8,936 bases of DNA from Promethearchaeia archaeon (GTDB taxonomy: Archaea > Asgardarchaeota > Lokiarchaeia > Sigyniarchaeales > SOKP01). The notes beneath the pieces are model-generated. The model worked only from the letters and a program-made list of their open reading frames with translations, had not been told where the DNA came from and searched no databases. Positions 1 to 4,257 of this stretch are shown piece after piece; the first letter of the stretch is position 1, and each line of letters begins with the position of its first letter. The position numbers were made by a program, and so were the translations under genes. The DNA lies in NCBI GenBank assembly GCA_046497275.1, contig JAWOFX010000039.1, positions 1 through 8,936 of the forward strand. Reading direction: 5' to 3'.

Positions 1-212
1 ATGTTTTTCTCTCGAAATAATTTACTATCTTCAATTTTGTTTTTTGCGCCACATTTTGGACATTGCCATTCTGTATTGCTAATCTTGATAGAATTTATAC
101 ACTCATCACATACAGAAATGTCGCAAATACAATAAAAGAGAGTATCGACTTCATGTTCGAAATCTTTTTTGCAAATGTAACAGTTGGTAGGCGGGGTCTG
201 TCTTTTATTCAT
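1..212 (-). CDS. C4C4 RING-finger protein (CNOT4/Not4-type spacing), possible E3 ligase; 3' end runs off the window
   Basis: Manual translation from ATG at 212-210: MNKRQTPPTNCYICKKDFEHEVDTLFYCICDISVCDECINSIKISNTEWQCPKCGAKNKIEDSKLFREKN..., with no stop before position 1. Eight Cys spaced C-x2-C-x13-C-x-C-x4-C-x2-C-x12-C-x2-C. Absent from the ORF track because it is truncated. Confidence 0.8.
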   Translation of the reverse strand, partial: MNKRQTPPTNCYICKKDFEHEVDTLFYCICDISVCDECINSIKISNTEWQCPKCGAKNKIEDSKLFREKN

Positions 213-290
213 TTTTTCCAGTGTATTTTTATAAATTAATATTATATAATGTATTACTATCTTATATAATATAAAATAATTTTGTTTCAA
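213..290. promoter_or_regulatory. Divergent AT-rich promoter region with two TATA-like TTATATAAT copies
   Basis: TTATATAAT at 242-250 and 262-270 (20-bp period), between divergent starts at 212 (-) and 291 (+). Confidence 0.45.
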
Positions 291-2880: not shown

Positions 2881-4257
2881 TTATTTATTTGGACCATCCC
2901 CCACTTTGCGATAAATAAATCCCATATTCTCCATGATTTCTTTATTAAATATATTTCTACCGTCAATAATAATCGGTGTTCTCATTTTCTCCTTAATATC
3001 CTTCAGATCTAAATTATAATATTGTTTGTGATTAGTTGCGAACAGAAGGACATCTGAATTTGATATTGCTTTGCCAATATTATCAGTTAATTGTGTCATA
3101 TCATAATCTCGTTCTTTTACATAAGGATCATGGGCAATATAGATAATATTATGTGAATGGTATCTTTTCATTAAAGATTCAATTATATTTTTAGCCGGTG
3201 TGTTTCGAGTATCATCAGTATCGGCTTTATAGGACACTCCCATTAAGGTGATTTTTATATTGTCAACAAATTTACGTGCTTGACGTAATGCATCTTCCAT
3301 TAATTCTACCATATGATTAGGCATGAAATCGTTGAGTTCTCGACTATAAGGAACAATTTTAATGTGGGATTTATAATTCCTTTCAGAATAAGCATCATGT
3401 CCATAAAGGAGAAGGAAAGGATCTTTAGTCAAGCAGTGACCTCCCACACCTGATCCAGGCATATGCATCATTCGGTCATGCCGATGATTAATTAATTCTA
3501 TAATTTCAAAGATATTTCTATTGAAATCTTCACATAGTAATGCCATCTCATTGGCAAAAGCTATGTTTACATCTCTGTAAGAGTTTTCTATACATTTTGT
3601 TAATTCTGCGGTAAGAGTGTCTGTAACTTGAAGCTCTTTTTTCACAACTTTTCCATACAAATACTTAGCGCGTTTATTAGCTTCATCACAGCCTCCGCCG
3701 ATAACTCTTGGAAAATCAGTTATGTATTCAATTAATTTCCCAGGCATTACGCGTTCAAATGAAAATACTAGATAAAACCCCTCTCCCCGTTTCATTCCGC
3801 TTGCTTCTTCCAGAATAGGTTTCACAATATTGTTCGTAGTTCCAGGAGCAACTGTTGATTCGATGATCACCGTTGCACCTTTTTTTAGATGGTTACCCGC
3901 TTTTTCGGATACTTCTTTTAGCGATTCATACATTGGAATCTTTGTGTAAAGATCTATGGGTGTCTGGACATCGATAAGCACATAGTCAGCATCATCAACA
4001 CAGTCATACTTCGAAGTAACATGAAATTTTCCATTTTTTACAACGCGTTCAATTAATTCATCCAATCCGGGTTCATCACCTTCAAACGGGTTTCTCCCCG
4101 CATTTAACCAATCAATTTTCCACCCACTTCTTTGGGATCTTCTCTGGATTCCCGTTACATAAAGATTTGGTACATCCGCTAATAATGCTGCCATAGGAAT
4201 TCCCACGTAACCCATACCAATTACTATTATAGATTTTGAATCTTCTTCTTTAGACAT
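2881..4257 (-). CDS. Nucleotide-sugar (UDP-HexNAc/UDP-ManNAc) dehydrogenase, WecC/WbpA-like
   Basis: Rossmann motif VIGMGYVG, VIIESTVAPGTT, ELTKCIENSYRDVNIAFANE, catalytic-Cys motif PGSGVGGHCLTKDP, and SYKADTDDTRNTP. Confidence 0.93.
   Translation of the reverse strand: MSKEEDSKSIIVIGMGYVGIPMAALLADVPNLYVTGIQRRSQRSGWKIDWLNAGRNPFEGDEPGLDELIERVVKNGKFHVTSKYDCVDDADYVLIDVQTPIDLYTKIPMYESLKEVSEKAGNHLKKGATVIIESTVAPGTTNNIVKPILEEASGMKRGEGFYLVFSFERVMPGKLIEYITDFPRVIGGGCDEANKRAKYLYGKVVKKELQVTDTLTAELTKCIENSYRDVNIAFANEMALLCEDFNRNIFEIIELINHRHDRMMHMPGSGVGGHCLTKDPFLLLYGHDAYSERNYKSHIKIVPYSRELNDFMPNHMVELMEDALRQARKFVDNIKITLMGVSYKADTDDTRNTPAKNIIESLMKRYHSHNIIYIAHDPYVKERDYDMTQLTDNIGKAISNSDVLLFATNHKQYYNLDLKDIKEKMRTPIIIDGRNIFNKEIMENMGFIYRKVGDGPNK

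Follow-up and report, generated by a model that had tools for sequence, protein, structure and literature searches.

The window analysed here, the whole stretch of 8,936 nucleotides, opens with the gene of a complete single-domain protein of 71 residues, whose eight Cys are predicted to build a RING-type fold, with every method used agreeing on the fold class. The protein belongs to a lineage-specific family that is present as a single copy in one order of Lokiarchaeia-type Asgard archaea. Its most likely role, which we advance only tentatively, is that of an E3, and it would serve the Asgard ubiquitin system as a minimal adaptor. Asgard archaea were already known to have RING proteins, E1, E2 and ubiquitin, and the family is an uncharacterised addition to this set.

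Contig C119, which begins with the window, is part of a draft genome of 3.85 Mb (188 contigs, 98.9% complete). Translation of the minus strand gave a stop-free frame of 70 residues, Met1-Asn70, at positions 3-212, with Cys at residues 11, 14, 28, 30, 35, 38, 51 and 54. Their spacing on the minus strand of window 1-212, C-x2-C-x13-C-x-C-x4-C-x2-C-x12-C-x2-C, reproduced exactly that given by an earlier reading made from the letters only (hereafter the sequence-only reading). The same reading had supposed that truncation at the window edge hid further domains, which proved incorrect. Window positions 1-191 are identical to the final 191 bases of contig C50 of the same genome, G000 (G000:C50:13168-13358), and the frame read through this overlap ends in Asn-Ile-stop, one codon past the window edge; therefore, the protein is complete at 71 residues. 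Leftward extension added Ile71, the last residue, and the stop codon, which are all that was lost at the edge, and no extra domain; the relatives are likewise 61-72 aa long. The join with C50 is matched by synteny, since the RING gene, a 162-aa gene and a ~278-aa gene run unbroken on contigs of the same genus and family. The left end of the window is not a genome end: the assembly holds 196 contig-end matches of this kind, so many of its contigs could be joined. The features of the gene are as follows.

1..212, minus strand: coding sequence of the RING protein, 71 residues (translation, C50 overlap, orthologue lengths of 61-72 aa)
212-210, minus strand: codon of Met1 (translation)
5-3, minus strand: codon of residue 70 (translation)
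2-1, minus strand: first two bases of the Ile71 codon; the codon is completed on C50, to the left of the window, where the stop codon also lies
51..182, minus strand: predicted RING core, residues 11-54, with the eight Cys ligands (profile alignments, AlphaFold2, fold matches, ligand conservation)
12..26, minus strand: conserved C-terminal tail, Ser63-Lys-Leu-Phe-Arg67 (motif in 31 of 33 distinct family sequences; Leu65 nearly invariant)
213..290, minus strand: AT-rich upstream region with TATA-like runs about 40 bases or less from the start codon, a possible archaeal promoter (sequence reading)

A word-indexed search found three relatives of the RING protein, all labelled Lokiarchaeota, and an exhaustive profile search of 1.84 billion representatives returned 16 matches, 12 of which are proteins of 61-72 aa. 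A second indexed search brought the family set to 24 sequences, whose labels, where named, are Lokiarchaeota or Promethearchaeota; the Asgard-type host proposed from the letters was thus correct, and it is Loki-type. Six-frame searches of 400 genomes of the phylum with the family profile detected the gene, in single copy, in 126 of them. The window's own family carries it in 116 of 134 genomes, one copy each, and three sister families of the same order in 1/1, 3/14 and 4/4 genomes (together 8/19), while the remaining phylum yielded one weak partial match only (E 6.8e-6). Family members are named 'hypothetical protein' by NCBI, and the ESM Atlas cluster of the protein bears the automatic name 'putative RING-type domain-containing protein'. 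NCBIfam has no family for the protein or for its two neighbours, and the literature searched contained no description of the family or of a C4C4 RING in archaea.

Across 33 distinct family sequences, seven of the ligand positions are Cys without exception, and the fourth is Cys in all but two sequences, which have Asp. The Tyr preceding Cys3 (Tyr27) and the Pro following Cys7 (Pro52) are present in all 33 sequences, the Trp two positions ahead of Cys7 (Trp49) in 32, and a tail motif, [ST]-x-[LI]-[FILV]-[RKA], in 31. With ligands and flanking residues so strongly conserved in these sequences, the Cys pattern is, on this comparison, real and not due to chance. The tail possibly binds a partner, makes a dimer contact or packs on the core. 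Only one longer protein, P0014 (414 aa, from a JGI metagenome contig of 21.7 kb), clearly matched the family profile (E 4.8e-9); it contains two tandem copies of the Cys pattern, the first with Trp in place of ligand 7, and has no Pfam match.

The eight Cys fit the RING-superfamily ligand pattern used here, C-x2-C-x(9-39)-C-x(1-3)-C/H-x(2-4)-C/H-x2-C-x(4-48)-C-x2-C. The best Pfam match of the protein was zf-RING_4 (PF14570), with E 5e-4 and 19.8-20.2 bits over profile positions 1-43 of 48, against a curated gathering cut-off of 27 bits; this model is preferred because of its all-Cys set and spacing. No RING model reached its curated cut-off on the protein or the family, and the top-scoring family member had 26.7 bits against zf-RING_4. 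Among 16 members, zf-RING_4 was the commonest match (11 of 16 at E < 0.1, best E 7.6e-6), and other RING-clan families, FYVE, C1 and PHD came behind it. The protein also gave a partial, sub-threshold match to Zn_ribbon_RanBP over its last Cys pair. When PDB sequences were searched with a shallow profile, the RBBP6 RING was the best single-domain match (E 0.003). With the 24-sequence profile, the RNF4 RING reached E 3e-5, a value that adds up both copies in a fused dimer, and the RINGs of TRIM32 (E 3e-4) and RBBP6 (E 4e-4) came next, followed by a mixture of FYVE-like, PHD, B-box and RING sequences. In these profile alignments, each Cys fell on a RING zinc ligand of RNF4, TRIM32 and RBBP6.

The structure was modelled with AlphaFold2 from the 24-sequence alignment; a model from four sequences (pLDDT 47.9) was discarded. 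The model had a pLDDT of 85.5, a pTM of 0.70 and a beta-beta-alpha topology; residues 26-34 are predicted to form a beta-hairpin, 36-42 a helix, and 48-50 and 57-59 strands. Foldseek against the PDB returned RING domains in the first 23 rows (probability 0.84-1.0, TM ~0.5), including those of TRIM2, TRIM23, TRIM32, TRIM25, TRIM21, KAP1, TRAF6 and Slx1. VIA-align, which is independent of Foldseek, gave the Slx1 RING as the best match (Z 6.3, rmsd 2.3 A over 59 residues), followed by Nse1, CTLH, an atypical VIN3 PHD, Lassa Z, TRAF3, FANCL, KAP1 and RNF4; the Z-scores are middling, as is to be expected of a domain of ~60 residues. By shape, the ESM Atlas returned the protein's own cluster first, and then small bacterial proteins and eukaryotic RING E3 clusters (TM 0.53-0.61). 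RING domains outranked PHD structures in every search, and the RING finger proposed by the sequence-only reading was supported by the model and by RING matches in Foldseek, VIA-align and the ESM Atlas. Because the ligands align one by one and the fold class agrees, a cross-brace is predicted, with Cys11/14 and Cys35/38 forming site 1 and Cys28/30 and Cys51/54 forming site 2, and the eight Cys would bind two zinc ions. The nearest non-self clusters in the ESM Atlas are 72-78-aa hypothetical proteins of Thermodesulfobacteriota (0.91 by features; TM 0.60-0.65 by shape). These did not come up in the exhaustive search by sequence and could be either bacterial look-alikes or very remote relatives.

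The genome itself contains a eukaryote-like ubiquitin system, as the proposal of a ubiquitin E3 had called for. We found a ubiquitin-like protein whose GG motif lies one residue from the C-terminus, five ThiF/E1-like genes, three RING-H2 proteins above the Pfam cut-off and one clear E2 gene (UQ_con), on the minus strand of contig C79. In same-genus genomes (compare L050, L051 and L058), a second E2 is encoded in an operon together with an E1-like gene, a JAB/Rpn11-like gene and a gene for a membrane protein, and this operon lies away from the RING gene. In G000, tblastn detected no copy of the second E2 and only distant E1 and JAB paralogues; this E2 may have been lost, or it may fall into a gap of the assembly.

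The E2 gene on C79 carries a 32-nt insertion (G000:C79:2990-3021, minus strand, equal to L003:1461-1492), which shifts the frame relative to an intron-less orthologue of the same genus, with both flanking halves of the E2 well conserved. Splicing was read from RNA contigs against the DNA of the genome assembly; DNA run X1, possibly the source sample, yielded no contigs over the E2 locus. The organism's RNA occurs in salt-lake metatranscriptomes (runs X4-X13). In RNA contigs of three metatranscriptome runs, which come from three studies, exactly these 32 nt are skipped, which restores the frame; the contigs have 0 mismatches to the flanks in this genome's assembly. The insertion fits a bulge-helix-bulge in which the central helix has 4 bp and each of the two bulges 3 nt, with the cuts placed symmetrically, and a second species has a 32-nt insertion of different sequence at the same site, with compensatory changes in the hairpin. 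We read the insertion as a bulge-helix-bulge intron that is removed in RNA. Two other readings, a -1 frameshift at U-UUA-AAG and the excision of 23 nt, were dropped on account of the exact 32-nt skip and the fitting bulge-helix-bulge cut. The E2 is intact after splicing, so the genome does not lack E2. This type of E2 is intact and intron-less in most of the 154 genomes of the order; in ~17 genomes (L060-L074) it carries insertions of 29-39 nt, as many as three in one gene. They fall at no fewer than six sites, which lie near nt 168, 193, 220, 380-388 and 436. A strict bulge-helix-bulge test was passed by 17 of 22 such insertions, and public databases contain truncated E2 gene calls that stop at these same places. 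The E2 frame opens after a TGA (G000:C79 ~3402-3416, minus strand; L049:240-260). Ahead of the conserved N-terminus, neither G000 nor G274 has an ATG, GTG or TTG. The same-genus orthologue in G275 (L052) has ATG where G000 and G274 have ATT, which suggests that ATT is the start codon in the latter two.

If the protein is an E3, its RING face would dock a ubiquitin-charged E2 and promote ubiquitin transfer, as for the small RING finger protein (srfp) of Caldiarchaeum subterraneum, and the C-terminal tail would supply contacts to a partner, a substrate or a second copy in a dimer. The putative E2 docking and ligase activity draw on the proposed RING face, formed by Ile13 (Cys1+2), Ile42 (Cys6+4) and Pro52 (Cys7+1). 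In the sequence comparison, the protein keeps all three canonical E2-contact positions, so that the hydrophobic surface expected for E2 binding appears to be present. Position Cys1+2 is Ile, Val or Leu in 28 of 33 family sequences, and Ser, Lys, Thr, Gly or Ala in the most divergent members; position Cys6+4 is Val, Leu, Ile or Met in 25 of 33. The linchpin position after Cys8 is occupied by Gly55 here and by Arg or Lys in 11 of 33 members. The strictest conservation outside the ligands falls on Tyr27, Trp49 and the tail, not on the classical E2 face or the linchpin. A complex prediction with the E2 (E2-A) scored 0.00 against a mark of 0.32, in a single run without controls, and speaks neither for nor against binding. 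The RING gene is distributed far more narrowly than the E2, which occurs across the whole order and has homologues that are also labelled Hel- and Hodarchaeota.

Small RING finger proteins have been described in Aigarchaeota and Asgard archaea, and one of them, combined with E1 and E2 in vitro, works as an E3 (PMC5654768). That protein, srfp, is the closest functional analogue of the family; by pattern, the closest are the Not4 and RBBP6 RINGs, and by predicted shape the Slx1 RING. Both srfp, which is also reported from Asgard archaea (PMC5654768), and the present protein are small single-domain RINGs in genomes with ubiquitin, E1 and E2, and they share a hydrophobic residue after Cys1 (I30 in srfp) and a Pro after Cys7, the presumed E2 face. 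They differ in that srfp is a RING-H2 with two His ligands (4 and 5), whereas the present family is all-Cys, with Cys30 and Cys35 at those positions; srfp has a functional Arg linchpin, R69, and the present protein a Gly. Moreover, the srfp gene shares an operon with the genes of ubiquitin, E1, E2 and Rpn11, whereas the present gene stands outside any such operon, and srfp activity was shown in vitro, whereas the family is known from sequence and model. The proposal of a RING in an Asgard archaeon stands as to the predicted fold but is not new in kind, in view of srfp (PMC5654768) and the existing Atlas label.

The neighbours of the RING gene encode a HAD hydrolase, a NifB-like protein, an SRPBCC-like protein and an Asgard-specific protein of 278 aa; no gene for ubiquitin, E1, E2 or a deubiquitinase lies beside it in the window, on C50 or in the same-family genomes. 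Throughout the window's family, in many genera, the RING gene is followed in fixed order on one strand by genes of 157-165 aa and 277-283 aa. Pfam had no match for the 162-aa and 278-aa proteins of this genome. The former resembles SRPBCC/START-like proteins by language-model features (0.95-0.96, a lead only), and the latter gives a faint roadblock/longin lead. A divergent clade has a different pair upstream of the RING gene, of 199-201 aa and 291-293 aa, the 199-aa member of which has only a weak Longin match in Pfam. BLASTP and hhalign detected no homology between the 162/278-aa and 199/291-aa pairs (probabilities 0.1-0.4); since the pairs of the two clades have no detectable similarity, the neighbourhood gives no functional link across clades. 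In the divergent clade, a gene for a Urm1/ThiS-like product ending in GG lies ~1.2 kb from the RING gene, with a coiled-coil gene between them, which is a weak hint of a link between the RING and a modifier; it is weak because we know of no Urm1-type modifiers that use RING ligases. The full order in L012 and L015 is the 199-201-aa gene (weak Longin), the 291-293-aa gene, the RING gene, the coiled-coil gene on the other strand and the Urm1/ThiS-like gene, followed by genes for a histone deacetylase and an Arf-like small GTPase.

It is quite possible that the domain is a RING/PHD-like zinc module for protein-protein interaction only, without an E2, comparable to the Slx1 RING that holds Slx4, to Nse1 or to MAT1. 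Tyr27, Trp49 and the [ST]-x-L-F-R tail would then form the binding site for a lineage-specific partner, and it is these residues, unlike the linchpin, that are conserved most strictly. The Slx1 RING that led the VIA list (Z 6.3) is bound to Slx4, and Nse1 and the atypical VIN3 PHD finger stood near the top of that list. The Slx1 match (PDB 4zdt) covers 59 of 70 residues at 19% sequence identity; it is a C-terminal domain of a nuclease, binds Slx4 and is not a proven ligase, and the nuclease domain is absent here. PHD fingers (C4HC3) have the cross-brace scaffold, and a Trp two residues ahead of ligand 7, as in the present family, is more typical of them; those of WSTF, KDM5 and BRD1 gave weak profile matches. 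However, ligand 5 of a PHD finger is His and is invariantly Cys in the family (Cys35), ligands 3 and 4 form C-x-C here, the model has a RING-type helix after ligand 6, unlike a PHD finger, and RING structures came ahead of PHD fingers everywhere. A dedicated partner would fit the fixed order with the 162-aa SRPBCC-like and 278-aa Asgard-specific proteins in many genera, as well as the short distances in the divergent clade, where the RING gene starts 14 bases after the 291-aa gene (L012) or 44 bases after the 293-aa gene (L015). Against it, no homology could be detected between the neighbour sets of the two clades, and in the main clade ~200-450 bases separate the RING gene from the next gene; therefore, the linkage may be inherited synteny only. 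The conservation of the three canonical E2-contact positions also speaks for an E3 and against a pure interaction module. That the protein is instead a micro-protein whose zinc finger serves for ribosome or nucleic-acid binding, of the HVO_2753 or zinc-ribbon ribosomal type, and is only superficially RING-like, appears improbable. Its small size, the C-P-x-C-G at the last Cys pair, the sub-threshold Zn_ribbon_RanBP match over that pair and weak sequence or fold matches to an HVO_2753-like 30S-bound protein, eL40 and zinc-ribbon RNA-binding proteins point in that direction. Yet the HVO_2753 and ribbon matches span only part of the domain, with Foldseek probabilities of 0.47-0.51 and TM of 0.33-0.40 versus 0.97-1.0 and 0.50-0.57 for RINGs, and two traits of the protein are those of a RING, namely the C-x-C formed by ligands 3 and 4 and the helix that follows ligand 6.

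The sequence-only reading had likened the protein to the eukaryotic ligase CNOT4/Not4, but a specific tie found no support. That reading gave the spacing of the Not4 RING as x2-x13-x1-x4-x2-x11-x2. The Not4 RING shares with the family the all-Cys C4C4 ligand set (PF14570; PDB 1e4u, 5aie) and nearly the same spacing, the last loop being one residue longer here, and the Pfam zf-RING_4 alignment is consistent with this one-residue difference. Yeast Not4 requires L35 to bind E2 (PMC4890865), and the residue at that position here, Ile13 at Cys1+2, is hydrophobic too. The near-identical all-Cys pattern and the frequency of zf-RING_4 among the Pfam matches would suit an orthologue or N-terminal fragment of Not4/CNOT4, a multidomain Ccr4-Not-like E3 cut by the window edge, but the protein is almost certainly nothing of the kind. 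The frame stops one codon past the edge, all relatives are 61-72 aa long, and the zf-RING_4 match lies below its cut-off. Other RINGs outrank Not4 by sequence profile and by fold: in the 24-sequence search of PDB sequences Not4 had E 0.015-0.025, versus 3e-5 to 4e-4 for RNF4, TRIM32 and RBBP6, and in the Foldseek search of the PDB it was rank 34. Not4 contains an RRM, a C3H1 finger and a Not1-binding tail, none of which is present in the 71-aa frame, and no match to Not1 (PF04054) was found in the draft genome, where at 98.9% completeness an absence is not proof. A truncated Not4-like protein was thus rejected by the stop codon on C50, and the likeness to Not4 is limited to ligand chemistry and spacing. 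RBBP6 has another all-Cys (C4C4) RING. Its Cys (PDB 3ztg, 2yur) align one to one with those of the protein, although RBBP6 is a large multidomain eukaryotic protein and the likeness is marginal, confined to the ligand scaffold. It is very unlikely, in our estimation, that the family is an archaeal representative of an all-Cys (C4C4) RING lineage ancestral to eukaryotic Not4- and RBBP6-type ligases; if this were true, the RING subtype would predate eukaryotes, and the 71-residue protein would be its minimal working form, together with a Lokiarchaeal E2.

Taken alone, the RING family leaves the picture of archaeal ubiquitin systems unchanged, as an archaeal small RING E3 has already been reconstituted. 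The protein would lend itself readily to structure determination and to ubiquitylation tests in vitro. As an all-Cys, 71-residue, single-copy RING that is nearly universal in one Lokiarchaeal family, it is an uncharacterised candidate for a part of the ubiquitin machinery of these archaea.
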